Part shown: positions 7,764 through 45,426 of the stretch, piece by piece
Position numbering within the stretch: position 1 is the stretch's first letter
How the letters are laid out: the number at the start of each line of letters is the position of its first letter
DNA from: Chitinilyticum piscinae
Lineage (GTDB): Bacteria; Pseudomonadota; Gammaproteobacteria; Burkholderiales; Chitinibacteraceae
DNA: 64,000 nucleotides
Assembly (NCBI RefSeq): GCF_015223195.1
Contig: NZ_JADFUA010000001.1
Coordinates: 575,858-639,857 of the forward strand
Direction: 5' to 3'
Program-made: the position numbers and the translations under genes
Notes under the pieces: model-generated
Seen by the model: only the letters and a program-made list of their open reading frames with translations
What the model was told of the DNA's origin: nothing
The model's database searches: none

Positions 7764-7846
7764 TCCGGCAGAATGTGTCTGCAGTCAAGAACATCAATCG
7801 GACTGGGGCAAGCCCCGGCAGTACCGATGGCGAGCCACAACGTGGC

Positions 7847-27015: not shown

Positions 27016-27669
27016 ATGGACGAACACCGCGATCAGCCTTCCCGCCGGCAACGGCGCAAGGACGCCAGACCCTCGGAAATCACCGCCGCCGCCTTGCGTT
27101 TGTTTCACGAACGCGGCTTTGCCGCAACCAAGCTGGACGATGTCGCCGCGGCGGCCGGCGTGACCAAGGGCACGCTCTACCTCTATTTCCCGAGCAAGGA
27201 AGCCTTGTTCAAGGCCGTGGTGCAGGAAAGCGTCATTCCGAACATCGACCGGCTGGCGCAGGCTGCGGCCTCATCCACCGAGCCGCCGCTGGGCAAGCTG
27301 GCGCTTGTGCTGCGCCTGCTGGCGCAGGGGCTGAACGAGAGCGACGGCTGCATTTCCAAACTGATGCTGGCCGAGGCCGGCAATTTCCCCGAGCTGGCGC
27401 AGTTCTATGTCGACGAGGTGGTGCACCGGCTGCACGACGTGGTGCGCGGAATACTCTCCGAGGGTATTGCCACGCAGAGCTTCAGAAATATCGATCTTGT
27501 GCATACACCCCGCCTGATCATGGCCCCGTTGCTGCTGGCCAATATGTGGCGCAATACCTATGGCAGCTTCGACCGCTATCCGGTCGACCCCGCCCATTAC
27601 GCCGAACTCCAGATTGCCATGCTGCAGCACGGCTTGCTGCCATCACCCCAGGAACCCCGTCATGACTGA
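27016..27669 (+). CDS. TetR/AcrR-family transcriptional repressor
   Basis: HTH signature ITAAALRLFHERGFAATKLDDVAAAAGVTKGTLYLYFPSKEALF. Start at MDEHRDQ. Its stop overlaps the start of the downstream HlyD gene. Confidence 0.85.
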   Translation: MDEHRDQPSRRQRRKDARPSEITAAALRLFHERGFAATKLDDVAAAAGVTKGTLYLYFPSKEALFKAVVQESVIPNIDRLAQAAASSTEPPLGKLALVLRLLAQGLNESDGCISKLMLAEAGNFPELAQFYVDEVVHRLHDVVRGILSEGIATQSFRNIDLVHTPRLIMAPLLLANMWRNTYGSFDRYPVDPAHYAELQIAMLQHGLLPSPQEPRHD

Positions 27670-28765
27670 AACCGCAAACGCCGCTCCGCCGCGGCAGAAC
27701 AAGGCCCGCAAGATACTGGGCGGCATCCTGCTGCTGGTCGCCGCCCTGATCGGCTGGCGCATCTGGTGGTCCAGCGGCCATATCGGCACGGATAACGCGC
27801 AGGTCGAAGGGCACATCGTGCCGGTGTCGGCACGGGTCGGCGGCTATGTGCTGCGGGTGCCCAACGAGGACAACAGCCAGGTGGCACGCGGCCAGTTGCT
27901 GGTCGAGATCGACCCGCGCGACTACATCGCCAGGGTGGCGCAGGCCGAGGCCGACTGGCGCAATGCGCTGTCGGCATCCGGCCAGTCCGGTCAGCCGGGC
28001 GAGGCGCTGGCCAAGATCGGTGCGGCCAATGCCGCGGCGGCTGCCGCCGCCGCACAGGGACAGGCTGCCGAGACAGCAATTGCCGAAGCCCGCGCAACGG
28101 CCACCAAGGCACGCAATGACCTGCAACGCGCCCGCGAGCTGGCGGCGCAGAAGATGTACAGCCAGGCGCAGCTCGATACTGCGCAGACGGCACTGGCGGT
28201 CGCCGAAGCGCGCGTACAGAGCCTGATCGCGCAGAAAAATGCCGCGCAGGAGCAGGCCGCCGCCGCACGCCAGCAGGTGGTGGTGTCCGGAGCCGGGCTG
28301 AAGTCGGCCGAAGCCAAGACCATGGCCGCCGAGGCCGCGCTGGCACTGGCCAGGCATCAGCTGGCCGATACGCAGGTGACCGCGCCGGCCAGCGGCGTGG
28401 TGAGCAAACGCGCGGTCGAGCCGGGGCAGATGATCCAGGCCGGGCAGACGCTGATGTATCTGGTCGATACCTCGCGTCTGTGGGTGACGGCCAACCTCAA
28501 GGAAACCGAGATTGCCGAGGTGAAACCGGGCCAGCGGGCCGAGATCAGGGTCGATGCCCTGTCCGGGGTGAAGCTGACCGGCAAGGTTAAATCGTTCAGC
28601 CCGGCAACCGGCGCGCGCTTTACCCTGCTGCCACCGGACAATGCCACCGGCAATTTCACCAAGGTGGTGCAGCGCGTGCCGGTGCGCATCGCGCTGGATC
28701 CCTTGCCCGAAGGTGTGACCTTGCGCCCCGGGCTGTCGGTGGATGTGACCATCCTGACGCGCTGA
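27662..28765 (+). CDS. HlyD-family membrane fusion protein (EmrA-like)
   Basis: Start at MTETANAAPP. N-terminal TM helix ILGGILLLVAALIGW. Long coiled-coil. Biotinyl-lipoyl-like and beta-barrel segments characteristic of EmrA. Confidence 0.85.
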   Translation: MTETANAAPPRQNKARKILGGILLLVAALIGWRIWWSSGHIGTDNAQVEGHIVPVSARVGGYVLRVPNEDNSQVARGQLLVEIDPRDYIARVAQAEADWRNALSASGQSGQPGEALAKIGAANAAAAAAAAQGQAAETAIAEARATATKARNDLQRARELAAQKMYSQAQLDTAQTALAVAEARVQSLIAQKNAAQEQAAAARQQVVVSGAGLKSAEAKTMAAEAALALARHQLADTQVTAPASGVVSKRAVEPGQMIQAGQTLMYLVDTSRLWVTANLKETEIAEVKPGQRAEIRVDALSGVKLTGKVKSFSPATGARFTLLPPDNATGNFTKVVQRVPVRIALDPLPEGVTLRPGLSVDVTILTR

Positions 28766-28819
28766 GCAGACATTTGAAGGGCAATGCCATGCTTCAGAGG
28801 CCACTGTGAACCCGCAACG

Positions 28820-30400
28820 ATGAAACCCATCCTTCCCACCCTGTCCCGTTCGGTCGACGACGCCAGCATCCATGCCAACCGCTACATCATCGCGATGACG
28901 GTAACGCTGGCCTGCGTGCTGGAATTGCTCGACACCAGCATCGTCAATGTCGCCATCCCGCACATGATGGGCACGCTGGGCGCGACGCTGGACGAAATCA
29001 CCTGGGTGTCGATCGGCTATGTGGTTGCCAATGTCATCGTACTGCCGATCTCGGGTTTTCTGGGCAATCTGTTTGGCCGGCGCAACTACCTGCTGCTGTC
29101 GATTACGCTGTTCATCGTGGCGTCGATTGCCTGCGGCAACGCCAGCACCCTGCCGGAAATGGTGTTCTGGCGCATCGTGCAGGGCCTGGGCGGCGGCGGG
29201 CTGATCGCGACCGCGCAATCGACGATGTTCGAGGTGTTCCCGCGCAAGGAAATGGGCGCGGCGATGGCGATCTTCGGCATGGGTATCATGCTCGGGCCGA
29301 TGCTGGGACCGACTGTCGGTGGCTGGCTCACCGACCAGTACAGCTGGCCGTGGATTTTCTACATCAACCTGCCGCTGGGCCTGCTGGCGCTGCTGCTGGT
29401 GCTGCTGTACGTGCCGGAATCAAAGCTCAGGCAGAAGGTCGAGCATATCGATTTCACGGGCTTGCTGCTGATGGCCGCCGGCATCGGCGCGCTGCAGCTG
29501 ATGCTGGAGCGCGGCGAGCGGCTGGACTGGTTCGATGCCTGGGAAGTGGTGGCCTATGCGGTGATCAGCATCGCCGCGCTGGGGGCCTTCATCATCCGCC
29601 AGCTGGAACACCTGCACCCGCTGGTCGACCTGCGCGTGTGCCGCGACCCGCAGTTTGCCGCCGGGCTGGTGATGACCTTCTTCCTCGGCGCCTCGCTGTT
29701 TGCCACCGTGTTCATCTTCCCCGTGTATCTGCAGACACTGATGGGCTATTCGGCCTGGCAGACGGGCTTGCTGATCCTGCCTTCTGCCCTGGCATCCGGG
29801 CTGATCATGCCGGTATCGGCACGGCTGGTGAGCAAGGGGTTTCCGGCGCGCGGGCTGATTATCTGCGGTGCTGGCCTGTTCATGTATTCGATGTGGCTGC
29901 ATTACCACTTCACCACGCAGTCGGGCACCTGGGATTTCATGCTGCCGCTGGTGATCCGTGGCGTAGGCCTTGGCATGATTTTCATGCCCTTGAACAATCT
30001 GAGCATGGCCAATCTGCAGCCGCTGCAGATCGGCAGTGCCACGGGCTTGTACAACCTGACCCGCCAGCTTGGCGGCAGTGTCGGCATTGCGCTGTCGGCG
30101 ACGTTTTCGACCAAGCTCTCGCACATGAAAAACGATGTGCTGCTGGAACACCTGAGCGGGCCGTTTGCCAGCGAGCGCCTGGCAATGCTCAAGTCCCGCC
30201 TGCTGGCGAGCGGCATGCCGGTCACCAGCGCGGATGGTGCGGCGCATGCACTGCTGGCGCAGCAAGTGCAGAAACAGGCACTGATGCTGGCCTACGACCA
30301 TCTGTTCATGCTGTTCGGCCTGGCCATGCTGCTGACCCTGCCCTTGCTGGTGGTGATGAAAAAGCAGCAGGTTGCGGCATCGGCAGAAGTGGCACACTAA
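28820..30400 (+). CDS. MFS drug:H+ antiporter, DHA2 (EmrB/QacA) family, 14 TM
   Basis: Start at MKPILPTL. DHA2 motifs LDTSIVNVAIP and GxxxDxxGRR-like FGRRNYLL. 14 predicted TM helices. Confidence 0.85.
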   Translation: MKPILPTLSRSVDDASIHANRYIIAMTVTLACVLELLDTSIVNVAIPHMMGTLGATLDEITWVSIGYVVANVIVLPISGFLGNLFGRRNYLLLSITLFIVASIACGNASTLPEMVFWRIVQGLGGGGLIATAQSTMFEVFPRKEMGAAMAIFGMGIMLGPMLGPTVGGWLTDQYSWPWIFYINLPLGLLALLLVLLYVPESKLRQKVEHIDFTGLLLMAAGIGALQLMLERGERLDWFDAWEVVAYAVISIAALGAFIIRQLEHLHPLVDLRVCRDPQFAAGLVMTFFLGASLFATVFIFPVYLQTLMGYSAWQTGLLILPSALASGLIMPVSARLVSKGFPARGLIICGAGLFMYSMWLHYHFTTQSGTWDFMLPLVIRGVGLGMIFMPLNNLSMANLQPLQIGSATGLYNLTRQLGGSVGIALSATFSTKLSHMKNDVLLEHLSGPFASERLAMLKSRLLASGMPVTSADGAAHALLAQQVQKQALMLAYDHLFMLFGLAMLLTLPLLVVMKKQQVAASAEVAH

Positions 30401-30749
30401 GGGTATATCCCCAAAAGTCATTTGAATAAATGGCTGCATGGTAATACCCATGCAACTGGCTGGCCAAACATGGTGCGCGGCTGATCCCGCTGCGGGCAGG
30501 ATCAGTGCCGCGGCTCTTGCTGCCGCAACCGGAAAACCGCTCAGCATTCCGGAAAATTGCTGATCCGGCGGGTTTATCCCGCCAACCCTTCCAGAAAACT
30601 TGAAAGTGCTTCAAGAAAGCTCTGTGACAGGCCTGCGGGTCATGCGCCTAAGATGAGCTTGTCTTCCCGAGAGGAAGCGGCGCGAGCCACCTGCCAGTTC
30701 TTGGGCAGACTGGCCGCACCCCTGACAAGCATATCAAGAGGGTTCGGAG

Positions 30750-33251
30750 ATGAATGATCTGTTGCAGCCACTGTTCGACCACGCCGGCATGCTGGCTATC
30801 GGCGCGGTGTTGATTGTTTTGCTGGTGAATTCCATCGTCATTGTTGGCGGTGAAGAAATGGCGCTGCTGGAACGCCGCTGGCTGGGGCGCAAGATGCCGC
30901 AGGGGCGGGTGGTGGCGCAGCCCGGTGAGGTGGGGATCCAGGCGCGCACACTCGGGCCGGGACTGCACCTGCTGATTCCCTTCCTGTTCAAGGCGACCAA
31001 GATTCCCTTCGTTACGATTGCCGATGCCGAAATCGGCCTGGTTGAATCCATCGACGGGCATGCGGTATTGCCGGGCAAGATCTTTGCCGAGCCGGTCGAC
31101 GGGCACAACTCCTTCCAGGATGCCGAAGCCTTCCTGCGCAATGGCGGCCAGAAAGGCCCGCAGGTAGCGGTGCTGCCACCGGGGAAATACCGTATCAACC
31201 CGTATCTGTTCCGTGTGGACAAGGCCGCGATGATCACCATCCGCGACCATGAAATCGGTATTGTCGAGGCGACCGATGGCGACCCGATTCCGGCCGGCCG
31301 AATCTTTGCCCGCACGGTGGCCGGCCATCAGGCATTCCAGGACGGCGCCGGGTTTCTGCGCAACGGCGGGCAGAAAGGTCCGCAGATCGACGTGATCCCG
31401 CCGGGGAATTACCGGATCAACCCGCTGCTGTTCAAGGTAAGCAAGAGCGCGGCGGTCAGCATTCCCGAAGACAGCATCGGCCTGATCGAAGCCACGGATG
31501 GCGAGCCGATTCCGGCCGGGCGCATCTTTGCGCGGGTGGTGAAAGGCCATGATGCCTATCAGTCCGGGCAGGCCTTTATCGACAATGGTGGGCAGAAGGG
31601 CCCGCAGATCGATGTGCTGCCTCCGGGGCTGTACCGGATTCACCCGAATCTGTTCAAGCTGCAGATTGTGCCGGCCATCGTGATCGAGAAGGGCGCGGTC
31701 GGGGTGGTGCTGGCACAGGATGGTCTGCCGATTCCGACCGGGCGTCTGCTCGCGCACCGCGTCAGCGGCCATGACAACTTCGAGAATGGCGAGGCCTTCC
31801 TCAACCAGGGCGGGCAGAAAGGGCCGCAGATCGATGTGCTGCTGCCGGGTACTTACCGGATCAATACCGCACTCTTTGCCGTTCGCACCGCGCCGGCCAC
31901 GGTGGTCGAGGCCAATCACGTCGGGCTGGTGACCGCGCTGGACGGTATCCCGCTGCCGGAAAACGAATACGTGGCACGGCAGGTGGGCGGCCATGACGAC
32001 TACCAGAACGGCTCGGCCTTCCTGACCCAGGAAGGCCAGCGTGGCCCGCAGCTGGACGTGCTGCGCCCCGGGACGTATTACATCAACCCGCTGCTGTTTA
32101 CCGTCGAACTGGACAAGGTGGCCGTCATCGAGCGCGGTCAGGTCGGTGTAGTCGTGTCCAACGTCGGGGAGGCCCCGCCCGAGGAAATGATCCGCCGTCT
32201 GTCCGCCACGCAGGGCTCGACACAGGAAGCCGGGCAGGAACGCTATGTGGTGCCCAAGGGCTTCCGCGGGATTCAGGAGGAAGTCGCCGGCCCCGGCAGC
32301 TATTACCTGAATCGTCGCGCCTTCATGGCCTACATCATCGATACGACCAACATCACCATCGACTGGGACGAGCAGGCCGATACCCGCTTTGACGAACTGA
32401 CGGTGATTTCCAAGGATGGCTTCCCCATCCAGGTCTCGGTCAAGGTGGTCATTCGCGTGCGGCCCGATCAGGCGCCCTATATGGTCGCCAAGGTCGGCTC
32501 GGTCGATAACCTGATCCAGCACGTCATCCATCCGATGATCGACTCTTCCTTCCGCAACCAGGCCTCCACGGCCTCGGCGATGGATTTCCTGCAAAGCCGC
32601 TCGGAAGAACAGGCCAAGGCCGAAGCGCGCGTGCGCGCCGATCTGGAGAAATACCACGTCGAATGCGTCTCGGTGCTGATCTGCCAGATCAAGCTGCCTG
32701 CCGAACTGATGGAAACGCAGACCAAGCGCATCATCGCCGAGCAGCAGCTGGAGATGTACAAGATGGAGCAGCGCTCGCAGGTGGAACGCACGCAGATGGA
32801 AAAAATGCGCGCCACCGCCGACCAGCAGCCTGTGCTGGTGGCTTCGGAAATTGCCGTGCAGGTGGCCCAGCAGAAAAAGAGCGAGATGGTGACGCTGGCC
32901 GAAGGCGAGGCCCGTTCCAAGGCGCTCGACGGCGAGGGGGAAGGCAACCGGCTGCGGCTGATCGGTGACGGCGAGGCGGCCAAGATCTCCGCCATCGGTG
33001 AAGCCACCGCGCTGGCCTACCAGAAGCAGACCGAAGCGCTGGGCGAGGATGCCATCCGCTCGATCAAGCTGGTCGAACTGATTTCGGGGGCCATCGAACG
33101 CGGCCAGCTCAAGATTGTTCCCGATGTCATGGTCTCGGGCAGCGGAGCCAGCGAAGGCTTCATGGCCCAGCTGGCCCGCCTGCTCCCCGGCATGGACCTG
33201 GGCCAGCTGCTGGCGCGCGGCAAACCCGATGTGCTGCCGCCACCGCAATAA
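30750..33251 (+). CDS. flotillin/SPFH (band-7) family protein with an expanded N-terminal region of five to six ~75-aa tandem repeats
   Basis: 833 aa. TM helix LAIGAVLIVLLVNSIVIV. SPFH beginning VVAQPGEVGIQARTLGPGLHLLIPF. Five near-identical units (...IG.VEA.DG.PIP.GRIFAR.V.GH..FQ.G.AFL.NGGQKGPQIDV.PPG.YRINP.LFKV) plus a degenerate sixth. Flotillin-type Glu/Ala/Gln-rich coiled-coil C-terminus (EQQLEMYKMEQRSQVERTQMEKMRATADQQ). Confidence 0.8.
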   Translation: MNDLLQPLFDHAGMLAIGAVLIVLLVNSIVIVGGEEMALLERRWLGRKMPQGRVVAQPGEVGIQARTLGPGLHLLIPFLFKATKIPFVTIADAEIGLVESIDGHAVLPGKIFAEPVDGHNSFQDAEAFLRNGGQKGPQVAVLPPGKYRINPYLFRVDKAAMITIRDHEIGIVEATDGDPIPAGRIFARTVAGHQAFQDGAGFLRNGGQKGPQIDVIPPGNYRINPLLFKVSKSAAVSIPEDSIGLIEATDGEPIPAGRIFARVVKGHDAYQSGQAFIDNGGQKGPQIDVLPPGLYRIHPNLFKLQIVPAIVIEKGAVGVVLAQDGLPIPTGRLLAHRVSGHDNFENGEAFLNQGGQKGPQIDVLLPGTYRINTALFAVRTAPATVVEANHVGLVTALDGIPLPENEYVARQVGGHDDYQNGSAFLTQEGQRGPQLDVLRPGTYYINPLLFTVELDKVAVIERGQVGVVVSNVGEAPPEEMIRRLSATQGSTQEAGQERYVVPKGFRGIQEEVAGPGSYYLNRRAFMAYIIDTTNITIDWDEQADTRFDELTVISKDGFPIQVSVKVVIRVRPDQAPYMVAKVGSVDNLIQHVIHPMIDSSFRNQASTASAMDFLQSRSEEQAKAEARVRADLEKYHVECVSVLICQIKLPAELMETQTKRIIAEQQLEMYKMEQRSQVERTQMEKMRATADQQPVLVASEIAVQVAQQKKSEMVTLAEGEARSKALDGEGEGNRLRLIGDGEAAKISAIGEATALAYQKQTEALGEDAIRSIKLVELISGAIERGQLKIVPDVMVSGSGASEGFMAQLARLLPGMDLGQLLARGKPDVLPPPQ

Positions 33252-33276
33252 GGGAGTGATCAATAAGCCAGCAAAG

Positions 33277-33307
33277 CAAACGCGCCAGGATAGCCATGGC
33301 GCGTTTG
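33277..33307. terminator. probable bidirectional terminator hairpin between the convergent flotillin and lipoprotein genes
   Basis: 10-bp stem CAAACGCGCC / GGCGCGTTTG with an 11-nt loop. Lies in the 167-nt gap between convergent stops (33251 and 33419). Confidence 0.5.
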
Positions 33308-33418
33308 CCTTCATCTGAAAGCGAAAATGTCGATGCCTCCGCTTTAGGCCTTGCATCCACATGAAGCATGACAAGGAATCCGGATTCCGCCCGCCAAGGG
33401 CAGCGGGCGGAGTTGGAA

Positions 33419-34834
33419 TCAATCGCTCCAGCCGCCTTCGCAGCGGAAGCTTTCAGCGGGCAGGGTACGCAGCTTGCCGCTGCGTGCATCCAGCTCCCAG
33501 AGGCGGCCTTGGGTCTGTTTGGCATCCCAGCGGTGCTTGTGCCAGCCACTCATGTCATCGCTCTTGCCCTGCTTGAATTTCGGCGAAGGCAAAAAGCCGA
33601 TCTGGACCAGTTGTTTGCTATCACCGATGAGCTGAGGCAGCTTCTGGGTCCCGGTAATGCACGACTGGCCACCTGCTTCGCCCTGATAGGAATGCTCAAC
33701 CGTCAGTTTATTCATGTCGTAGGGGCCAACCGGCTGTGCATCGGCAACCACGAAGCTGCGCTTGTCGACAACCAGTAGCCACTGCTGCTCCGGTCGCGAA
33801 GCCAGAATCAGCTGCCAGTGTCTGGCTGCGTTGTCGTACTCTTCCCGTCCTCCGCCACGAACATCGAACTGAGTGAACGATTTGGCTGCCTTGCTACCGG
33901 GGGGCGTTTCTATCCAGCCAGCGCTTTTGAGCAGCGGGTATTTGCCACTGTCGTCGATCCCGCCGGGCAGGGTCTTGCCGATCAGCAAACGCGGGTCGCT
34001 GCCGAGATTGCTGCTGGCTACCACCTCTTCGGTGCTGGTATTGCGCGCTTTATAGCGACCACTGGCAGGATCAAGGCCCCATACCCTGACGAGCGGTTTG
34101 GCGAGTTGCACCAGCTTGCCCTGAGCATCGCTGATGGTTCCGGTGGTGGTGGTTCGCAACTGCAGTGGCTGGTTGGCACTCGCCAGTACTTCCAGCTTGG
34201 TATCGCTTTCCTGACAACGGGCGTTCGGTTTGCACGCTCCGGCATTGCTGACGGAACCATCAATACTGCCCAGCTCGGCGATCTGACCGTCCTTGTAGCC
34301 ACCAATCAGCCAGCGTTCAGACGAGTACCCCTGCCGGAAAGTCCATGCGCTGATAAGCCAGCCAGCATGCCCAGTGCCCAGATCGAGCCAGCGGATGCTC
34401 TCCGCTGCCGGAGGGTTGCCGAATCCAAGGCTGGATTCTGTTCTTTGTACGGCTTGCCAGCCTTTGCTCGTATTTAAAAAACGCCCAATTAGGATAGAAC
34501 CGCTTGCGGTATTGCCATCCCGTTCTGCGGCGGCAATCGCGTAAAGAGCCTGAGTGCCGTCGGACTCCCGAATCAGTCGCGCATCGAGCACGTACGCTGT
34601 TGCCACGCTGCCATCCTTGAGGCGGATGCGGGCTTGCCCCTGAGCGTTGCTGCTCCCAAACCATGTGTGAGCTAGTCCTACCGTATCTAGTTTGGAAATG
34701 CTGGAAATCTGGACAGGCTTTCCGGCACTGACTGGTGGTTTGGTTGGCTGAGTGGGCGAAGTGGCAGGCTGGACGGTCACACACCCAGCCATTAGTGCTG
34801 CCAGTGGGAGCAGGGCTAGCAGTGGCTTATTCAT
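33419..34834 (-). CDS. lipoprotein, hypothetical (471 aa)
   Basis: Lipobox LLPLAALMAGC. Ser/Thr/Gly-rich secreted protein. Convergent with the flotillin gene. Confidence 0.65.
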   Translation of the reverse strand: MNKPLLALLPLAALMAGCVTVQPATSPTQPTKPPVSAGKPVQISSISKLDTVGLAHTWFGSSNAQGQARIRLKDGSVATAYVLDARLIRESDGTQALYAIAAAERDGNTASGSILIGRFLNTSKGWQAVQRTESSLGFGNPPAAESIRWLDLGTGHAGWLISAWTFRQGYSSERWLIGGYKDGQIAELGSIDGSVSNAGACKPNARCQESDTKLEVLASANQPLQLRTTTTGTISDAQGKLVQLAKPLVRVWGLDPASGRYKARNTSTEEVVASSNLGSDPRLLIGKTLPGGIDDSGKYPLLKSAGWIETPPGSKAAKSFTQFDVRGGGREEYDNAARHWQLILASRPEQQWLLVVDKRSFVVADAQPVGPYDMNKLTVEHSYQGEAGGQSCITGTQKLPQLIGDSKQLVQIGFLPSPKFKQGKSDDMSGWHKHRWDAKQTQGRLWELDARSGKLRTLPAESFRCEGGWSD

Positions 34835-35734: not shown

Positions 35735-38401
35735 TCAGGCACGTGGCAGTAGCAGCCGGCACAGCAGTTTGCGGGCTTCTTCCAGCAGCAGTGTTGTGGA
35801 TGCCAGCCCGATGGCCAGCAGCCAGTCGCGTGCAGCGAGATCGGTGGCGTCGAACACGGCCTGCGCCGGTGCCCAGTGCACGGCCACCACCTGCATCAGC
35901 AGCACGCCGGCCAGAGCCAGCCACAATTTGCCATTGCTGAAGAACTGCTCATTGAAGGCCGAGCCGGATTCGCTGCGGGCATTGAAGATATTGAAAAACT
36001 GGAACAGCACGAAGGTGGTGAAGGCCAGTGTGCCGGCATAGCGCTCGCCATGCGCCGCGCCGAACTGCCAGGCTGCCAGCGTGCCGCAGGCCATGGTGAT
36101 GCCATACAGGGCGATGCGCAGCAGGCGCGGGCCGGTGAGGATGTGCGCGGTGGTGGCTCGCGGCGGCTTGTGCATGATGCCCGGCTGTGCCGGTTCAACG
36201 CCCAGTGTCATCGCCGGCGGCCCATCCATGATGATGTTTACCCACAGGATCTGGATGGCGGTGAACGGCGCCGGCCAGCCCAGCAGCATTGCACCCAGCA
36301 TGGTCAGTAGCGCGCCAATATTGGTCGAGAGCTGGAAGCGCACGAATTTGACGATGTTGTCGTAGATGGTGCGCCCTTCCTGCACGGCATGCACGATGCT
36401 GGCGAAATTGTCGTCGGTGAGCACCATTGCCGCAGCCTCGCGGCTGACTGCGGTGCCGGTCTGCCCCATGGCCACACCGATGTCGGCCGTTTTCAGTGCC
36501 GGTGCGTCGTTCACGCCGTCGCCGGTCATGGCGACGACCTGCCCGCTGGCCTGCAACGCTTCGACAATGCGCATCTTGTGTTCGGGAGCAACGCGGGCAA
36601 ATACGCCGGTGTCGCGCACCAGCGCGGCGGTGGCGGCGGCGTCCAGCCCATCGAGTTCCCGTCCTTCGCGGACCTGGCCGGGCAGGCCAAGCTCGCCGGC
36701 GATGGCGGCCGCGGTGAGGCGGTGGTCGCCGGTAATCATCTTCACGCCAATGCCGGCGCGGTGACAGGCGGCAATCGCCGCGGCGGCTTCGCTGCGCGGC
36801 GGGTCGACCATGCCGGCGAGCCCCAGCAGGGTCAGTCCCTTGCTCCACTGCGCCAGATCCTGGCTGGACGCAAACTCGCTGGCGGGGATAAGGCGGGTTG
36901 CCAGCGCCAGTACCCGCATCGACTGATCAGCCATTGCGCGGGTATGGGCTTGTATACTTTTTATCGCATCGCTTGTGATTGGTATGGAGTGGTGGGTATT
37001 GCTGCTGTGGTGCGTGCTGCGTGCAAGCAGCACATCCGGAGCCCCTTTGACCCAGAGGCGCACCTGCTCGCCTTCGCGATGAAAGGTCGCCATGAATTTG
37101 TTTGCCGAGTCGAAGGGGATTTCGGCCAGCCGCGGGCTGGCGGTACGCAGCGTCCCGGCGTCAAGGCCGGCCTGGGCGGCCAGCTGCAGCAGCGCGCCTT
37201 CGGTGGGATCACCGATGATGTGTTCGCCATCAAGCTGTGCATCCGCGCACAGTACCGCGGCAAGCAGCAATTGCAGCAGCGTGTCATCGGCCTGCAAGCT
37301 CAGCTGCGCCGGTGTCAGGGTGCTGGCATCGTAGCGCTTATCCGCAGCGTACAACTGCCGCACAGCCATGCGGTTCAGCGTCAGCGTGCCGGTCTTGTCC
37401 GAGCAGATGACGGTGGTACAGCCCAGTGTTTCCACTGCGGCGAGTTTTTTCACGATGGCATTCTTGCGCGCCATGCGGTGCATGCCCAGCGCCAGTGTCA
37501 CGGTGACTACCGCGGGCAGTCCTTCCGGAATGGCGGCAACGGCGAGCGCAATCGCGGTCATGGCGGTTTGTGCCAGCGGATCTCCGCGCAGAATGCCCAG
37601 CAGAAAAAACAGCAACACGACAAAACCGGCAATCAGTGCCAGCCGCTGGCCGAGCCGGTCGAGCTGGCGCTGCAGTGGGGTAGCCGATTCGGCCGTGGCC
37701 GCCAGCAGGTGCGCCAGCCGGCCGGTTTCGGTGCGCATGCCGGTGGCGGTGACGATGGCTTCCAGCCGGCCACGGGTCACGACGGTGTTCATGTACAGCA
37801 TGTTGCTGCGCTCGGCCAGTGGCGTATCGGCTGGCAGTGGGCTGCTGCCCTTCTCCAGCGGATGGGCCTCACCGGTCAGGCTGGCCTCGCTGACTTCGGC
37901 GCCGTGGGCGGCCAGCACCCTGGCATCTGCCGGCACACGGTCGCCGGCCTCCAGCAGGATCAGGTCTCCGGGTACCAGCTCGCTGGCCGGGATATCGCAG
38001 ACTTCGCCATCGCGCCGCACGCGCGCCGTGTGGGCCAGCATGGCTTTCAGGGCGGCGAGTGCGGCTTCGGCACGGTTTTCCTGGATAAAACCCAGCGTGG
38101 CGTTCAGGAGCACTACCAGCACGATGACCACGGCATCGGTGAGATCCCCGATCAGCGCGGCGACAGCGGCAGCGGCCAGCAGAATCAGGATCAGCAGATT
38201 GCGGAACTGGTCGGCAAAGCGCAGCCAGCCTGGCCGGCGTGCCGCTTCCTGCAGGCGGTTGAGCCCGCATTCAGCCAACCTGCTCCGTGCAAGTGCGGCA
38301 GCAAGCCCCTGCTGCGTGCTGTGCAGCGCCGCCACAACCTGCTCGCTGGACAGGGAATGCCAGTGCATCGAGGCATCGGGGGGATGGTGTGATGGATCCA
38401 T
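35735..38401 (-). CDS. cation-transporting P-type ATPase (P2-type, Ca2+/Mg2+-ATPase-like)
   Basis: DKTGTLT phosphorylation motif ([12 protein letters not shown]). [20 protein letters not shown] in TM4. About 10 TM helices. Start taken at MDPSHH...[15 protein letters not shown] (~38401) within ORF 35735..38539. Confidence 0.9.
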
Positions 38402-38546
38402 GCGTCCTCCTGCTCTCATAGTAGTCGCTCCACCGTGCGCAGGTCGGCAGGTCTGCAGCGGGGTATGGCGATGGCCGGTACTGCAAAGTCGGCGGCTTTG
38501 CGACAAAATCGGGATATTCAAGCATGTTCCGGAATTCAAAATTCAA

Positions 38547-39704
38547 ATGGCAGACAGTCACCGTAAATTGAAAGTTCTTTGTGTATTTGGCACCCGTCCG
38601 GAAGCCATCAAGATGGCGCCGGTGATCAGGGCCTTGCAGGCGGATGAGCAAATGGATTGCCTGGTCTGTGTGACCGCGCAGCACCGGGAGATGCTTGATC
38701 AGGTGATGCGGCTGTTCGGTTTGCAGGCTGATTTTGATCTCGATCTGATGCGCCCGGGACAAACACTGGCCAGTCTGACCTCACGTGTTCTGGAAGGGGT
38801 GACCGATGTGCTGGAGCGCTGCCGGCCCGATATCGTGCTGGTGCATGGTGATACGTCCACTACCCTGGCGGCAGGACTGGCTTCGTTTTACCAGCGCATT
38901 CCGGTCGCGCATGTCGAGGCTGGCCTGCGCACCGGGGATATGGAGGCACCGTGGCCGGAGGAGCTGAATCGTTCGGTGGTCGGGCTGTTTGCCCGTCTGC
39001 ATTTTGCGCCCACCGGGCAGGCTGCCCAGAACCTTCGTGCGGAGGGGCGCCGTGAGGAGGATATTTTCATCACCGGGAATACCGTGATTGATGCACTGCT
39101 TGGCATCAGCAAACAGCTGGACGAGAACCCGGCACTGGCGCAAGAGCAGGCCACGCGTTTCCCCTTTCTGGCTGCGGACAAGAAGCTGGTGCTGGTGACC
39201 GGCCATCGCCGCGAGAATTTTGGCGATGGTTTTCTGAATATCTGCAAGGGACTGGCCAGGCTGGCCAGCCGTGACGACATCCAGATTGTCTATCCGGTGC
39301 ACCTGAACCCGAATGTGCAGGAGCCAGTCAATGCGCTACTGCGCGGCTTGCCGAACATTCATCTGATCGAGCCCCAGGATTACCTGCCCTTCGTGTATCT
39401 GCTTAAGCGTGCCGAGCTGATTCTGACCGACAGCGGGGGGATTCAGGAGGAGGCACCGGCACTGGGCAAGCCGGTGCTGGTCATGCGTGACACCACTGAG
39501 CGTCCCGAAGCCGTGGCTGCCGGCACAGCCAGACTGGTGGGGACGGACTGTGAGCGCATCGTCGCGGCGGTCAGCAATTTGCTGGATGACCGTCAGGCCT
39601 ATCTTGGCATGACCGAGGCGCCCAATCCCTACGGCAATGGCCAGGCTGCCGCACAGATCCGCGCCGCCATGCTCGATTGGTGGGCGCGAACCCGAGCGGA
39701 ATGA
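38547..39704 (+). CDS. wecB: UDP-N-acetylglucosamine 2-epimerase (non-hydrolysing)
   Basis: 385 aa beginning [27 protein letters not shown]. Contains HVEAGLRT and the ...[27 protein letters not shown] motifs. Start lies inside the longer spurious ORF 37368..39704. Confidence 0.9.
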
Positions 39705-39715
39705 AAAGCAGGTTT

Positions 39716-41860
39716 CTAAGTCTGTGGCGCATCCTGCCCTGAGCGTGCAGAAGGGATTTCCTGGGCCTGTTGCAGTTTTTGCAGCTGTTCGAAGTCTTCC
39801 CGGCTGATGGCACCCTTGCTGATCAGATAGTTGATCAGGTGCTGATGCTCATCCAGATCAAAGCCCCTGATGGCCTCATCCAGCTCGCGAGCCGTGAGCA
39901 GATTGTGGATGACCATCAGGTCGATCAGGGCGGGTTTCCCATCAGGCAGGAAGTCCGAGCTGAGCCCCGAGAGCAGGCGCAGCGCGGCATTGATCTCGCT
40001 CTCGCGAGCGATGAACTGGCGGATGGGTTTGCCCAGTTGTTGCTCCAGAGCATCCTTGTCCGTATCGGTCAGCGGGGTGGCAACCGCCACATGGATGAGT
40101 TGCTCGTGCTGCAGAAACGGGATCGCCCGCAGGCGGAAGCAATGTTCGAAAGCCAGCCGCCGATGCAGCTGCAGGATGCCGTCCTTATCCAGCCTGGCGC
40201 GGCGCAGGTCATATTGCGCGGAGATGGCCTCCGCCAGCGTTTCATCATCCAGTGCGCCTTGCACCACCAGCAAGCGCCCGACAGGCAACTGGAACTGGCT
40301 TTGCTGGCGCAGCGCGGTTTCGAGTTGCTCGGGCTCGATGGCTTGCCAGCTGACCAGCAGCTCGCCCAGCCGTTTGCGCTGTTTGGCCAGCCTTTCTGCC
40401 GAAGGAAAGTGGTGCATGGTCTTGTCCCAGACCAGGCGCTTGCCAGTAAACAGAAAGTTGAGAAACATCCGCCAGGCGCGCATCGTCGCCAGAAAGTTGA
40501 TCAGATTGCTGACCGCCATGCGAGGGATCGACATCAGTCCCTGTTCCCAACCGTATAGCCGGTTCACGAAATAGAAGCGCTGCACGACGCGACTGATCAT
40601 GATGGAGCCGGTGAAGGTGGCGATGTACAGCGGCCAGCTACCGGGGGCGAAAATCGGCGGAAAATGCAGTGTCCACCAGCCCGCCTTGCTGGCAATGTAG
40701 AAAGCGAGAAACTGGAAGAAGACCAGATAAGCCAGCACATTGAGCAGCGAGGTAACGATGCCTTTGCGGTCACGGAACAGCAGGTATCGATCTGCCAGCG
40801 AGCCGTGCCAGCCCAGATGCATCCAGCCCTGCAGGCTGATGCCGAGTACCCAGCGTGCGCGCTGGCGGTAGGAGGTGTACAGGGTATCGGGGAAATATTC
40901 GCGCACGCAAAGCGGCATGTCGATCACGGTTTCCCGGTCTGCCGCCAGGCCGAACCAGCTCTTGCGCCGCACCTGGAATTGCACCGGGAAGCGGGCAAAG
41001 ATGGTCTTCATATCGGTGGCCGCCAGCCGGGTGCCGATGTCGTAGTCTTCGGTCAGGCTGTCGGTGTTGAAGGGCTGGTTATTGCTGTCTGCACACAGGT
41101 GCAGGAGGGCCCGCCGGGAAAAGCAGGTGCCCACTCCGGCGGAGGGCACCATCCCCGAGAGGCTCTCGCGTACGACCAGATCCTTGCCATGCCATTCGGC
41201 AAATTCATCCATGTAGGTGCCGGCCACCAGCTCGAACCAGTCGCGCTCGAGCGAGGTAACTGGCAGCTGGATCATGTCCTTGCGCGGCAGCAAGTAATTG
41301 AAAAACTTGAGTTCCAGCGGGTGCAGCACATCTTCGGCATCGTGCATGACAATCCCGGCAAATTCGATGCCGTTATCCTGCTCGTACTTGAAAATGGCCT
41401 GGATGATCCAGTTCAGGCAATCTGCCTTGCAGGTCGGCCCGGGATTGGGCACTTCCACCCGCAGCAAATGGCGGAAATGGCGGCGAACACGTTCGACTTC
41501 GTCGATGGTGGCCTGATCATTGCAATAGGTGCCCACGAACACGACATAGCGGCGATAGTCGAGCACACTCATCATGTTCTCGACCATCTGCGCGATGACA
41601 TCGTATTCCTGCCAGGCCGGCACCATGATCGCCAGATATTGCTCGTTTTTTTCCTTGAGCTGGGCCGCACTGAGTGGCCGGTAATCCGCACGGCGCTTGA
41701 TCGTGAGCTTGCGCCAGAGCTCGCGCGCCCAGTACCAGATGTCGATGAAGACATCATCCACGCTGGAGATGAGGATCAGGATGGTCAGAACAACCGCCAC
41801 GACCTCCAGTGCCGCATAGTACTGGGCAAAATAGACTGACGTTCCAAGCGAGAGACTCAC
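39716..41860 (-). CDS. processive family-2 glycosyltransferase with C-terminal MshEN-type c-di-GMP-binding domain (NfrB-like exopolysaccharide synthase)
   Basis: 714 aa. N-terminal TM helix. GT2 domain with VMHDAEDV (DxD), SLTEDYDIG (TED) and YRQRARWVLG (QxxRW). About four C-proximal TM helices. Cytoplasmic tail carries RLGELLVSWQAIEPEQLETALRQQ, then a 7-aa spacer, then GRLLVVQGALDDETLAEAISAQ. These match the two tandem MshEN motifs (RLGxxL(L/V)xxGx(I/L)xxxxLxxALxxQ). Confidence 0.85.
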   Translation of the reverse strand: MSLSLGTSVYFAQYYAALEVVAVVLTILILISSVDDVFIDIWYWARELWRKLTIKRRADYRPLSAAQLKEKNEQYLAIMVPAWQEYDVIAQMVENMMSVLDYRRYVVFVGTYCNDQATIDEVERVRRHFRHLLRVEVPNPGPTCKADCLNWIIQAIFKYEQDNGIEFAGIVMHDAEDVLHPLELKFFNYLLPRKDMIQLPVTSLERDWFELVAGTYMDEFAEWHGKDLVVRESLSGMVPSAGVGTCFSRRALLHLCADSNNQPFNTDSLTEDYDIGTRLAATDMKTIFARFPVQFQVRRKSWFGLAADRETVIDMPLCVREYFPDTLYTSYRQRARWVLGISLQGWMHLGWHGSLADRYLLFRDRKGIVTSLLNVLAYLVFFQFLAFYIASKAGWWTLHFPPIFAPGSWPLYIATFTGSIMISRVVQRFYFVNRLYGWEQGLMSIPRMAVSNLINFLATMRAWRMFLNFLFTGKRLVWDKTMHHFPSAERLAKQRKRLGELLVSWQAIEPEQLETALRQQSQFQLPVGRLLVVQGALDDETLAEAISAQYDLRRARLDKDGILQLHRRLAFEHCFRLRAIPFLQHEQLIHVAVATPLTDTDKDALEQQLGKPIRQFIARESEINAALRLLSGLSSDFLPDGKPALIDLMVIHNLLTARELDEAIRGFDLDEHQHLINYLISKGAISREDFEQLQKLQQAQEIPSARSGQDAPQT

Positions 41861-44058
41861 AGCGCAACATCACCCTTGCGACGGCGGCGGATCTGCGTGA
41901 GACGTGCAAGCAGCAGCACGAAACCGACCAGGCCGATCAGACCGGTCCATAGCCACCAGTAGCGATCCCAGACGGTATCCGGATCAGCGGCTTCTGCCAG
42001 CGCGCTACCGTCCGGATCGTGCTGATCCAGCTGGATTACTTTGCCATCCCCAGTGATGATGGCCAGGTTTCCGCGATCAAGTGATGGGGTATTGTCTTGA
42101 ATCTCTGGTATTTCAGCGCCTGTGGATGTATACAATACACCGTATTGGCCGCCGGCCTTGACGATTTCGGCGAGCCCGAGCTTGTGAAGCTGGTTGGCCC
42201 CCAGATTCTGCACGGCCTTGCCGTTAACGAGCACCTGACCATTGCGCAGAGAGGTCACGGGGCTGACACCCGGTAGCGTTACACCCACGGCAAAGAAGGT
42301 ACTTTCGGGTACGGGGGCGGCCTGCTTCTGGGCGATGAAGCGTGCCGGTGCCATATCGGCACTGGCACCCAGTGCGCTGGCCATGTCGATCAGGCCAGGC
42401 AGGTTCTTCTGTGCCTGATCAAGCAGTGAATCGGCAAGTAGCACAGTGCCGGTGCTGCCAAAACGCGTACTGATGCCCATGAAGTTGCTGCTGCCAAGCG
42501 ATTTGCCAAGCTGCAGGTGGCTTCCGGGGAGCAAGGACACCGGATAGGCAACCGGGGTGTCATGGCAGCGCGGGGTGCTGGGCTGGCGGTTGAAGCGCAC
42601 TGTGAGCGTGTTCTTGCTGCGCAGGATATAGTCAGGAATTGCAACTTCGATGCGTTGAACCTTGCCATTGCTGCGCACGTGCTGCGCACCGAGCAGCAGA
42701 TCATTCAGGAAGACCGATACCACCGGCTTTTCCTGCTGCTGATTAGGGGCGGCAGAGACATCCAGCACCACGGCCGTCGGCTGTTTGCCGCTTGTGCTCA
42801 AATCAGCCAGTGAAAACGACACACTGCGCTGTCCCTGGCTGAGTATGTCGAGGCTGCCGGAGAAGGCGGCCAATTTGTCCAGCAGGATGGCGTCCCTTCT
42901 GAGCGAAAAATCACCAGACTGGCTTTCCGGCTGGGCGCGCAGATCATTACGCAGCTGTTGCCACGCCGGCTGGAATGTATTTCCCAGATGGCGAGCCTGC
43001 GCACCAACGATAATCAGCGGCTGCCCAGCAAATTGCCCCAGCGCGATTGAATCGTTGGCCTGTGGCAGCGCGAAGCGCTTGCTGCGCCAGGCCGCGAAGC
43101 TGGCGGCACTGTCAGCCGATACTTCGGCCATCTGTGCCTGCAACGCATCCAGCGCTTTCTGGATGGCTCCGCGCAGGGCCGGGCTGTCGACCAGCAGATC
43201 GGCGGACAGCGGCCCCTGTCGCCCCAGTACCAGCAGTGCGCCCAACTGGGCTTCGTCGGCAATGAGATGGCTGGGTGATGCCTTGCTCAAGGCAGCAAAG
43301 GCCGGGATGCCCTGCAGACTGGCCGGCACCTGGATGCTGCGCAGGTCAATCTGGCTGCCAACGGTTGGCAGGCTGCGCAATTGCAGCCGTTTGTTGTGCT
43401 CTTTCAGCAGCACGCCGATGCGCCATGCCTGATCAAAGCTCTGTGGGTCGCTACGTCCCGCAGGAAGAAGGAGGATCGGCTCGGGGGGCAGCGATTGCCA
43501 TGCTGCCGTGGCGCTCATGACGTCATCGGCATCAAAGCTGAATTCCAGTCGTGTGGCCGGATTGATGTTCAGAATGTTGCCATCGCTGGATTCGCTGCTG
43601 CAGACCTGCTCCGCAAGCGCGGAGGACCAGCCTACGGAAAATTGCAGGAACCCATTGCGGATTTGCGTGTTGCCCAGAGCCAGCGGCAGCTGGAGTGGGG
43701 CGCTATCAGCGGTGATGTTCTGGCTGAGTACCGGGACGCCATTGGCCGTCACCTGCAAGGTCGAGCGGCCACCGCTGCCGCGCAGATAGTTGCCATTCAA
43801 CTGGAGGCTGGCTTGCTGCAGGGCGATGCCAGCTGGTACCGGAAAGTAAAAGTCACGTGAGCTGTTGCGGCCGCGCAGGGTAACCGGCTCGGGGATGCCG
43901 ATCTGGGTCAGCGGGATCGAGCGCGTGACCAGAGACCTGCTTTGCCAGCTGGCAAACTGATCACCAGCAGGACCGGCATGAGTCGTGGCGCCAAGCGAGG
44001 CAAGAACAGGAATAAGTACTGCCGCCAGAAAGCGGCTGGGGTAGAAAAGAGCTGGCAT
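41857..44058 (-). CDS. large periplasmic protein with C-terminal membrane anchor (BcsB-like architecture), translationally coupled to the GT2 gene
   Basis: 733 aa. Signal peptide FLAAVLIPVLASLGATTHA. ~690-aa soluble region. C-terminal TM helix WWLWTGLIGLVGFVLLLARL with basic tail TQIRRRRKG. The stop overlaps the GT2 start by 4 nt. Assignment to the BcsB family rests on architecture and context only, not a verified alignment. Confidence 0.55.
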   Translation of the reverse strand: MPALFYPSRFLAAVLIPVLASLGATTHAGPAGDQFASWQSRSLVTRSIPLTQIGIPEPVTLRGRNSSRDFYFPVPAGIALQQASLQLNGNYLRGSGGRSTLQVTANGVPVLSQNITADSAPLQLPLALGNTQIRNGFLQFSVGWSSALAEQVCSSESSDGNILNINPATRLEFSFDADDVMSATAAWQSLPPEPILLLPAGRSDPQSFDQAWRIGVLLKEHNKRLQLRSLPTVGSQIDLRSIQVPASLQGIPAFAALSKASPSHLIADEAQLGALLVLGRQGPLSADLLVDSPALRGAIQKALDALQAQMAEVSADSAASFAAWRSKRFALPQANDSIALGQFAGQPLIIVGAQARHLGNTFQPAWQQLRNDLRAQPESQSGDFSLRRDAILLDKLAAFSGSLDILSQGQRSVSFSLADLSTSGKQPTAVVLDVSAAPNQQQEKPVVSVFLNDLLLGAQHVRSNGKVQRIEVAIPDYILRSKNTLTVRFNRQPSTPRCHDTPVAYPVSLLPGSHLQLGKSLGSSNFMGISTRFGSTGTVLLADSLLDQAQKNLPGLIDMASALGASADMAPARFIAQKQAAPVPESTFFAVGVTLPGVSPVTSLRNGQVLVNGKAVQNLGANQLHKLGLAEIVKAGGQYGVLYTSTGAEIPEIQDNTPSLDRGNLAIITGDGKVIQLDQHDPDGSALAEAADPDTVWDRYWWLWTGLIGLVGFVLLLARLTQIRRRRKGDVAL

Positions 44059-44223
44059 GGCGTCACGGGGCTTCGGCTGTGGGTGCTTGAACTATAAGCA
44101 CAAAAGGGAAAATTCGGCGCGTATATTACCAAGCACCAAATCAACCCGAACAAGCCCTGTGTAACGCTATGCACATGACATAGCGCAGTGCGTGAGCACC
44201 GCGCCATGTCTTGCTGCCTAGGG

Positions 44224-45426
44224 TTATGCCACGCAGGTATTTGCCTGGCGGGCGATCATCAGCTCTTCGTTGGTCGGGATGACATACACGGCGACCTTGC
44301 TGTCTTCCGCCGAGATGCGACGCGGTTCGCCCGAACGCACGGCGTTGGCCGCCGGGTCGACGATGACGCCCAGCCAGCCCAGTTGCGCGCAGACAGCCGC
44401 ACGGGTCAACGCGTCGTTTTCGCCGATACCGGCGGTGAACACCAGCGCGTCGATACCTTGCAGTGCGGCGGCCAGTGAGCCGGTTTCACGCACGATGCGT
44501 GACACGAAGTAATCGATGGCCAGTTTGGCGCGCGGCGAATCGGAGGCTTCCAGATCGCGCATGTCGCTGGAAATGCCGGACATGCCGAGCAGGCCGGATT
44601 TCTTGTACAGCAGGTCTTCGATCTGTTTGGCATCCATTTTCAGGTGGTTCAGCAAGTGCAGCACTACACCGGCGTCGATCGAGCCGGTGCGGGTGCCCAT
44701 CGGCAGGCCTTCCAGTGCGGTAAAGCCCATGGTTGAGGCGATACCCTTGCAGGCTTGCAGCGCGGCCATCGACGAACCGTTGCCCAGGTGGCAGACCACG
44801 GTGCGGCCTTCGGCTGCGCGGGCGTCGATCTGCGGCAGGACGCTGGCGATGTATTCGTAAGAGAGACCGTGGAAGCCGTAGCGGCGAATGCCTTCCTGCT
44901 GGCTGAATTCATACGGCAGGCCATAGAGCTGGTTCAGCTCCGGCTGGTTGGCGTGGAAGGCGGTGTCAAAGCAGGCCACCTGCGGTACGTCGGGCAGCAG
45001 GCCTTGCAGGATCTTGATCGGGGTGATGTTGTGCGGCTCGTGCAGGGGGGCCAGCGGGATCAGTTTTTCCAGCTCGCTGACTACCTCGGCGGTGACTACG
45101 ACCGGCTGCGAGAATTTGGTCCCACCATGCACCACGCGGTGGCCGATGACGGCAATCTTGCGGCCGTTGATGACGCCGTTGATCCACGCCAGCATGTGGC
45201 GCAGCGCTTCATCGTGATTCTTGGCACTGCCCGGAATTGCCTCCGCAGAAACGAGTTTCGCGTCGCTGGCATCCTTGGCGGTGAATTTCGGATCGACATA
45301 GATGCCCTCGGCCAGCCCCTTGTACAGCAGGACCGGATCGGCGGCGCTGTTTTCGAACAGGGAAAACTTGATGCTGCTCGAACCGGCATTGATGACAAGA
45401 ATCAGCTCGTTCTGCTTGGTGGTCAT
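44224..45426 (-). CDS. ackA: acetate kinase
   Basis: 400 aa. N-terminus LILVINAGSSSIKFSLF. Also HRVVHGG and the FDTAFH motif. Confidence 0.95.
   Translation of the reverse strand: MTTKQNELILVINAGSSSIKFSLFENSAADPVLLYKGLAEGIYVDPKFTAKDASDAKLVSAEAIPGSAKNHDEALRHMLAWINGVINGRKIAVIGHRVVHGGTKFSQPVVVTAEVVSELEKLIPLAPLHEPHNITPIKILQGLLPDVPQVACFDTAFHANQPELNQLYGLPYEFSQQEGIRRYGFHGLSYEYIASVLPQIDARAAEGRTVVCHLGNGSSMAALQACKGIASTMGFTALEGLPMGTRTGSIDAGVVLHLLNHLKMDAKQIEDLLYKKSGLLGMSGISSDMRDLEASDSPRAKLAIDYFVSRIVRETGSLAAALQGIDALVFTAGIGENDALTRAAVCAQLGWLGVIVDPAANAVRSGEPRRISAEDSKVAVYVIPTNEELMIARQANTCVA

Follow-up and report, generated by a model that had tools for sequence, protein, structure and literature searches.

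Whether a gene set that combines parts of two known polysaccharide machines is a novel hybrid or a variant of an established system is the question raised by three neighbouring genes of Chitinilyticum piscinae (Betaproteobacteria, Neisseriales, Chitinibacteraceae), which code for a putative processive glycosyltransferase of family 2 (GT2), a BcsB-like periplasmic protein and a UDP-GlcNAc 2-epimerase (WecB). They lie at positions 38547-44058 of a stretch of 64,000 nucleotides (NCBI RefSeq assembly GCF_015223195.1, contig NZ_JADFUA010000001.1, positions 575,858 to 639,857), hereafter the window. An earlier reading made from the letters alone (the sequence-only reading) had grouped them as a non-canonical hybrid of the cellulose and NfrB systems, switched by cyclic di-GMP (c-di-GMP) and making a polymer with N-acetylmannosamine (ManNAc). 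The grouping is borne out: the mechanical listing of open reading frames (ORFs) places wecB on the plus strand and the genes of the 714-aa GT2 and the 733-aa BcsB-like protein on the minus strand at these coordinates, all with strong family matches. Our analyses lead us to consider it likely that the locus is an Nfr/PGR-type synthase-dependent exopolysaccharide system cut down to its inner-membrane core. The features on which the argument rests are the following.

38547-39704, plus strand: wecB, coding for a non-hydrolysing UDP-GlcNAc 2-epimerase of 385 aa (TIGR00236, PF02350)
39705-39715, between the genes: 11-nt tail-to-tail gap separating the wecB TGA (39702-39704) from the GT2 TAG (complement of 39716-39718), read from the sequence
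39716-41860, minus strand: gene of the putative NfrB-type processive GT2 with a C-terminal MshEN module, 714 aa, GTG start (NF012033, NfrB alignment)
39965-40168, minus strand: remainder of the MshEN domain, GT2 residues 565-632 (PF05157, 34.6 bits, cut-off 23.1)
40214-40372, minus strand: tandem 24-residue MshEN c-di-GMP motifs, GT2 residues 497-549 (NF053729, 48.9 bits, cut-off 38)
40694-41635, minus strand: GT2 catalytic domain, residues 76-389 (PF13641, E 2e-35; PF13632, E 9e-34)
41857-41860, minus strand: GTGA stop/start overlap, the BcsB-like stop lying inside the GT2 GTG start, read from the sequence
41857-44058, minus strand: gene of the BcsB-like periplasmic subunit, 733 aa (PF03170, AlphaFold2 and Foldseek)
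41890-41961, minus strand: C-terminal transmembrane (TM) anchor of the BcsB-like protein, approximately residues 700-723, followed by the basic tail RRRRKGDVAL (hydropathy scan and model helix)

The best-scoring family of the GT2 protein was NCBIfam NF012033 (PRK15489; 1050.8 bits over residues 8-700, cut-off 537). With the E. coli NfrB equivalog model NF008411 (cut-off 1170 bits) it scores 628.5 bits, whereas E. coli NfrB itself reaches 1333 bits. The two proteins nonetheless share 39% identity over 708 aligned positions, C-terminal region included (BLASTP against E. coli K-12 NfrB). The catalytic signatures HD174AED, T270ED272 and Q333RARW337 are intact, in agreement with the TED and QxxRW motifs from which a processive enzyme had been proposed, and the HDAED, SLTEDYD and RQxxRW signatures are invariant in a 7-sequence alignment. 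D174, D272 and W337 align with D169, D267 and W330 of E. coli NfrB, the residues mutated by Junkermeier and Hengge (PMC8669469). The two MshEN motifs (R497LGELLVSWQAIEPEQLETALRQQ520 and P526VGRLLVVQGALDDETLAEAISAQ549) flank a five-residue spacer, SQFQL. Within them L498, G499, G528 and I546 align with L490, G491, G519 and L537 of E. coli NfrB, c-di-GMP residues mutated in the same study or by Sellner et al. (PMC8669472); in the E. coli enzyme, mutation of the conserved residues abolishes activity or the response to c-di-GMP (PMC8669469, PMC8669472). Pfam gave no PilZ match in the protein, and the profile searches thus returned what had been anticipated, namely GT2 plus MshEN families above their cut-offs, with two tandem MshEN motifs in the place of a PilZ domain. 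The homology to NfrB, extending to the functional residues, makes the prediction of a c-di-GMP-gated NfrB-type processive synthase well supported.

As a separate observation, the MshEN domain is followed at approximately residues 644-697 (39758-39931, minus strand) by two more helical motifs that form a degenerate MshEN-like pair, ALIDLMVIHNLLTARELDEAIRGF and HLINYLISKGAISREDFEQLQKLQ; neither has a glycine at motif position 3. A comparable C-terminal repeat is present in E. coli NfrB and aligns with the first motif pair at E 1e-4.

The partner protein is predicted to have the fold and membrane layout of BcsB, yet not to be a BcsB ortholog. It matched PF03170 at 59.7 bits (cut-off 21) with partial coverage, the best stretch being 46-253. 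The BcsB equivalog NF008324 scored 19.2 bits against a cut-off of 972, and a profile of 25 relatives searched against PDB sequences recovered neither BcsB nor any other chain at E <= 1. The AlphaFold2 model built on the alignment of these 25 relatives (predicted local distance difference test, pLDDT, 81.5; predicted template modelling score, pTM, 0.76) places a signal-like N-terminus, a jelly-roll, an alpha/beta domain, a second jelly-roll, a second alpha/beta domain and a long terminal helix (693-732) in succession. When the model was compared with the PDB by Foldseek, the top 22 matches were all BcsB chains (E 4e-22 to 1e-14, approximately 730 aligned columns), among them 9fmt, 9b8i, 6yg8, 7l2z, 9b8v, 7lby, 5ej1, 5eiy and 4hg6_B, with template modelling scores to BcsB of 0.50-0.57 (E. 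coli BcsB); the first other match followed at E 7e-8 with a score of 0.11. Identity in the structural alignments to BcsB is only 10-13%. The full-length fold match and the TM layout on the one hand, and the negligible equivalog score and the lack of a PDB match by sequence on the other, argue for a BcsB fold outside BcsB orthology. The structural likeness that the sequence-only reading had proposed therefore extends over the whole protein, and the layout it described, a single C-terminal TM with a short basic tail, was recovered as a segment at approximately 700-723 followed by RRRRK. The hydropathy scan found a further hydrophobic, signal-like segment at the N-terminus. NCBI annotates a 100%-identical C. 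piscinae protein as BcsB. Only two cysteines of the BcsB-like protein, C153 and C498, are invariant.

The 4-nt overlap previously described between the two genes reads GTGA, which implies translational coupling of the BcsB-like and GT2 genes; the equivalent junction of Chitinilyticum aquatile is a 1-nt overlap, TGATG. Promoter and terminator consensus scans of 38300-44400 gave results at chance level, and the 165-bp spacer between ackA and the bcsB-like gene showed no clear signal on reading. Rfam returned nothing at gathering score in the window, and no c-di-GMP riboswitch lies upstream of the operon.

Whether this pairing is peculiar to C. piscinae was answered by its relatives. The GT2 protein was scanned against one genome per species, which gave 543 relatives, and the 80 best loci were taken with 10-kb flanks and searched by tblastn with WecB, BcsB-like, NfrA and YbcH queries; the nfrA counts below refer to the 78 loci with enough flank. 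These loci, among which C. piscinae itself does not figure, span Beta-, Gamma- and Alphaproteobacteria (Stenotrophomonas, Pseudomonas, Paraburkholderia, Burkholderia, Ralstonia, Herbaspirillum, Herminiimonas, Pseudoxanthomonas, Microvirga, Pseudoxanthobacter, Aquabacter, Andreprevotia and, from Chitinilyticum, C. aquatile). A bcsB-like gene stands directly upstream of the GT2 gene in every one of the 80, nfrA follows downstream on the same strand in 76/78, and wecB lies upstream in 70/76. Including the sole other locus, L069, where nfrA is upstream rather than downstream, nfrA was found in 77 of 78 loci. Gene calls and Pfam on three further Burkholderiales contigs, reached through the BcsB-like protein, gave the same order of genes, with Epimerase_2, BcsB-like, GT2, NfrA_C and a protein of approximately 300 aa. 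Across the 80 loci, identity to C. piscinae is 53-63% for the GT2 and 39-47% for the BcsB-like protein, and six GT2s from loci with a BcsB-like gene had NF012033 as their best family (1046-1187 bits).

From these counts it follows that wecB-bcsB-like-nfrB-nfrA-ybcH is the standard operon of the NF012033 branch. The BcsB-partnered GT2s form a curated NCBIfam family of their own, a sister group of E. coli NfrB, and E. coli, without a BcsB-like gene, is the exception within this comparison. NfrA is, in these relatives, a tetratricopeptide repeat (TPR) plus beta-barrel outer-membrane pore. The sequence-only reading had seen the BcsB-like protein as a partner in its place; since both occur together in 76/78 relatives, the BcsB-like protein is an added inner-membrane subunit and no substitute for NfrA, and what is peculiar to Chitinilyticum is the lack of nfrA and ybcH. 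Far from being confined to C. piscinae, the association of MshEN-GT2 and BcsB-like genes is thus conserved throughout the loci compared. With the Stenotrophomonas, Pseudomonas, Paraburkholderia, Herbaspirillum and Andreprevotia operons the C. piscinae locus shares a GT2 of NF012033, at 54-63% identity, a directly upstream BcsB-like gene and a nearby wecB; it differs from them in having neither nfrA nor ybcH and in that wecB is downstream and inverted instead of being the first gene. In several Herbaspirillum, Paraburkholderia and Ralstonia loci a ybcH-like gene was seen 4-7 kb beyond nfrA without adjoining it (L014, L015, L047, L054, L063, L066, L070, L077 and L089), a displacement in keeping with published nfr clusters, some of which contain additional genes of the acetyltransferase type.

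Gene sets of this composition have been reported previously. NfrB homologs are often linked to wecB; the wecB of E. coli lies apart from nfrBA, and Gram-positive bacteria have NfrB homologs without NfrA (Junkermeier and Hengge 2021, PMC8669469). Achromobacter xylosoxidans carries a cluster of nfrA, nfrB and wecB with homologs of BcsB and of O-acetyltransferases (Sellner et al. 2021, PMC8669472). The phage glycan receptor (PGR) locus of Acinetobacter baumannii (PgrA-G) includes PgrC, which is NfrB-like, PgrD and PgrF, homologs of BcsB and WecB, and PgrG, a porin; deletion of pgrD abolishes adsorption of phage StAb3, and a single nucleotide polymorphism in the wecB homolog leads to phage resistance, so that both homologs are genetically required for the receptor glycan (PLoS Pathog 2025, PMC12507263). 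The predicted machine, which would make a ManNAc glycan under c-di-GMP control with a BcsB-like subunit, therefore belongs to a known kind for which genetic support exists. In view of the 80/80 and 70/76 counts, the existence of NF012033 and the 2021 and 2025 papers, the notion of a non-canonical hybrid is not supported.

With the E. coli NfrB-NfrA-YbcH system, that of the phage N4 glycan receptor, the C. piscinae locus is linked by its GT2. The domain order (N-terminal TM, GT2, TM segments, C-terminal MshEN), the full-length identity and the key residues are shared, and the WecB dependence of the E. coli system has its counterpart here in an adjacent wecB. In gene content the two are the reverse of each other, since the E. 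coli operon has nfrA and ybcH and no BcsB-like gene. The likeness to A. baumannii PGR, which rests on descriptions of the components, lies in an NfrB/BcsA/PgaC-like synthase and homologs of BcsB and WecB; unlike C. piscinae, PGR also encodes the porin PgrG, a protein like the PgaB C-terminus and a degenerate GGDEF protein. With BcsA-BcsB the locus has in common a processive GT2, predicted here to be activated by c-di-GMP as well, and a jelly-roll/flavodoxin-like periplasmic protein with a single C-terminal TM. It differs from that pair in its sensor (MshEN, not PilZ), in the low identity to BcsB and in the lack of bcsC, bcsZ or other bcs genes, and the expected substrate would be ManNAc-derived instead of the UDP-glucose of cellulose synthase.

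The two genes of the pair have remained intact since the Chitinilyticum species separated. In none of the Chitinilyticum-type contigs is either ORF shortened (733/730 aa for the BcsB-like protein, 714/715 aa for the GT2), and the lengths in C. piscinae and C. aquatile are 733 and 733 aa for the BcsB-like protein and 714 and 715 aa for the GT2. Between the two species the ratio of nonsynonymous to synonymous substitution rates (dN/dS, Nei-Gojobori) is 0.18 for the GT2 gene and approximately 0.35 for the bcsB-like gene, so that both genes are under purifying selection since the species split. Among the neighbours, ackA and pta have ratios of 0.07-0.09 and the ATPase gene one of 0.29. Identity between the species is 77% for the GT2, 92% for AckA and only 46-47% for the BcsB-like protein. 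The latter (41857-44058 compared with L013 7800-10001) thus diverges much faster than its GT2 partner, and fast evolution of the BcsB-like protein is seen in all lineages of the 80 loci.

The third gene is unequivocal in its family, as WecB scored 504.1 bits with TIGR00236 (cut-off 210) and E 6e-121 with PF02350. Its orientation had been described as divergent from the GT2 gene, which is wrong: the two genes are convergent, with 11 nt between their stop codons. This gap is too short for a terminator, and the terminator scan found nothing in it. The protein is 62% identical to the housekeeping WecB of E. coli, and the median identity to operon-linked WecBs is 56%. A relocated copy from the operon was considered and is unproven, the identity to E. 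coli WecB being no lower than that to operon-linked copies. The family-wide association supports a putative functional tie between WecB and the synthase, and C. piscinae WecB may serve further pathways too. Of the proposal of a ManNAc polymer drawn from the linked wecB, the identity of the enzyme and its adjacency hold, ManNAc content being suggested by homology, and the linkage is weak within the genus.

Joined with what is known of the homologs, these results suggest how the locus could work. The GT2 would polymerise a sugar from a UDP-activated donor and thread the chain through its own membrane channel. The BcsB-like protein, its C-terminal helix in the inner membrane, would pack on the synthase and take up the emerging chain on the periplasmic side, in the manner of BcsB with BcsA. 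Together they would most likely constitute a synthase/translocase of the inner membrane that c-di-GMP switches on via MshEN, and WecB would supply its UDP-ManNAc donor. UDP-ManNAc is a precursor genetically required in the E. coli and A. baumannii systems. The core of a surface-sugar synthase, placed in the inner membrane and switched by c-di-GMP, is what the three genes probably encode.

Several points weigh against this reading of the locus. Activation by c-di-GMP, ManNAc content and physical pairing of the GT2 and BcsB-like proteins are each carried over from homologs and have to be read as predictions, and the complete pathway of the relatives is not to be assumed where nfrA and ybcH are lacking. 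The 80 loci are the GT2 relatives nearest to the query and no random sample of the 543. The dS of the bcsB-like gene (1.5) is near saturation, which makes its dN/dS only approximate. Besides that, the wecB linkage is weak evidence in C. piscinae itself: wecB runs convergent to the GT2 gene, the C. aquatile locus is without it, so that the linkage is not conserved within the genus, and its product is as similar to the housekeeping WecB of E. coli as to operon-linked WecBs.

The main difference from the relatives, the missing nfrA and ybcH, was traced in the surroundings of the pair. In agreement with the sequence-only reading, the 64 kb yielded no NfrA homolog. Four NfrA and four YbcH queries, run by tblastn, had no match below E 0.3. 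A hidden Markov model (HMM) of 29 NfrA sequences, which recovered its Andreprevotia control at E 3e-279, matched no part of the six-frame translation of the window at E <= 10. Pfam on twenty large window ORFs found no NfrA_C (PF13283), TPR porin or other glycan exporter. At the same threshold of E <= 10 the NfrA profile likewise had no match in 22 kb of C. aquatile or in the metagenome contigs L006 and L009. Overall neither nfrA nor ybcH was seen within 10-38 kb of the pair, be it in C. piscinae, in C. aquatile or in the metagenome contigs related to them, all of which retain just the bcsB-like/nfrB pair, between ackA and a P-type ATPase gene. The order in C. piscinae is pta-ackA-bcsB-like-GT2-[wecB, inverted]-P-type ATPase-CBS. 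The order pta-ackA-bcsB-like-GT2-ATPase-CBS is common to C. piscinae, to six metagenome contigs and to C. aquatile DSM 21506, the latter seven without wecB. In Andreprevotia chitinilytica, of the same family, all five genes of the operon are present, at another genomic site. Because the loss is common to both species and the related contigs at a syntenic site, the reduction to two genes is older than the split of the two Chitinilyticum species. That nfrA and ybcH are missing at the locus is lineage-specific, and it is the only unusual point of the C. piscinae system.

Two alternative fates of the outer-membrane step are to be contrasted. It is quite possible, if short of probable, that the system is an ordinary complete Nfr system which has been rearranged, with an nfrA-type pore, and perhaps ybcH, elsewhere on the Chitinilyticum chromosome and a surface polymer as in the relatives. 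The intact GT2 and BcsB-like genes, kept under purifying selection, suggest a working pathway, the displacement of wecB from the standard order implies that the operon was reshuffled in the genus, and E. coli, with its wecB unlinked to nfrBA, offers a precedent for scattered components (PMC8669469). On the other hand, given that nfrA is immediately downstream in 76/78 relatives, an unlinked nfrA would be exceptional, and the profile searches of the C. piscinae, C. aquatile, L006 and L009 sequences found none nearby. Two protein searches, with the closest NfrA, that of Andreprevotia, and with the 29-sequence profile, gave no Chitinilyticum match either, but they were insensitive, most known NfrAs being missed and the profile search being swamped by generic TPR proteins, and are not usable as evidence of absence.

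The other fate, which we regard as possible and only a little less likely, is a pore-less reduced variant in which nfrA and ybcH were lost genome-wide and the c-di-GMP-controlled ManNAc-type polymer of the two-gene core would remain periplasmic or leave by an unrelated outer-membrane route. The loss at the syntenic site in both species and the related contigs, predating their split while the remaining genes are still intact and constrained, speaks for it, as does the spacing of only 84 bp between the GT2 and ATPase genes of C. aquatile, which leaves no nfrA remnant there; the Gram-positive NfrB homologs without NfrA provide a parallel (PMC8669469). Nevertheless, the absence of nfrA is a result for the surroundings of the locus, Pfam on the large ORFs found no alternative exporter in the 64-kb window, and a long polymer trapped in a Gram-negative periplasm would probably be harmful.

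It is much less likely that the pair is a decaying remnant, two leftover genes without function after the loss of nfrA and ybcH. Such decay would agree with the number of standard operon genes missing at the locus (3/5 in C. aquatile, 2/5 in C. piscinae) and with the low identity of the BcsB-like protein between the species when set beside that of the GT2 and AckA. However, this protein is fast-evolving in all lineages (39-47% across the 80 loci), and the full-length ORFs, the intact catalytic and c-di-GMP motifs, the conserved stop/start overlap and the dN/dS values of 0.18 and 0.35 argue against a remnant. Finally, that the pair is a true BcsA/BcsB cellulose synthase making beta-1,4-glucan, as the PF03170 match, the BcsB fold and the NCBI name might suggest, is extremely improbable in view of the 19 bits against a cut-off of 972 with NF008324, the failure of the 25-relative profile to find PDB BcsB by sequence at E <= 1, a GT2 without PilZ that scores 1051 and 628 bits with NfrB-type models and is 39% identical to NfrB from end to end, and the position of the relatives' pairs in wecB/nfrA/ybcH operons, not in bcs operons.

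Read as an Nfr/PGR-type system reduced to its inner-membrane core, C. piscinae adds a further species to a family of known architecture, that of c-di-GMP-switched surface glycans which often act as phage receptors. For modelling the Nfr machinery it is relevant that the E. coli model lacks a subunit common in relatives, the BcsB-like protein being present in 80/80 of the closest genomes. Chitinilyticum furthermore constitutes a natural experiment, which, if the pore is truly absent, could show the role of the core on its own and the contribution of NfrA and YbcH.

Other features of the window were noted in passing. At 5625-11038 on the minus strand, approximately 30 kb away from the synthase genes, two proteins are encoded side by side: one of 1063 aa with the architecture HAMP-PAS-GGDEF-EAL and a zinc-binding CZB domain at its C-terminus, and a CHASE2-adenylate/guanylate cyclase protein. 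The former could provide c-di-GMP input, but no evidence of a link was found. Two overlapping ORFs occupy 30648-34834 on the minus strand, between the CBS gene and that of an EmrB-type transporter; one has 471 aa and an N-terminus resembling that of a lipoprotein, the other 924 aa, and neither has a Pfam or NCBIfam match. The syntenic C. aquatile locus is without them, so that they look like a C. piscinae-specific insertion of approximately 4.3 kb. They were considered as an alternative exporter, and with no family match and no counterpart in C. aquatile they are unlikely to be a conserved partner. In 27518-30547, minus-strand ORFs of 375 aa and 566 aa overlap the gene of the EmrB-type transporter of the major facilitator superfamily (28784-30400, plus strand; TIGR00711, 429 bits), and at least the 375-aa one is probably a shadow ORF of a GC-rich genome and no gene. 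A 564-aa ORF at 25414-27108 on the minus strand (L013 19255-20931) has no family match beyond a sub-threshold WD40; with 96% protein identity to C. aquatile, as against 69-92% for the surrounding genes, it is unusually conserved or recently exchanged.

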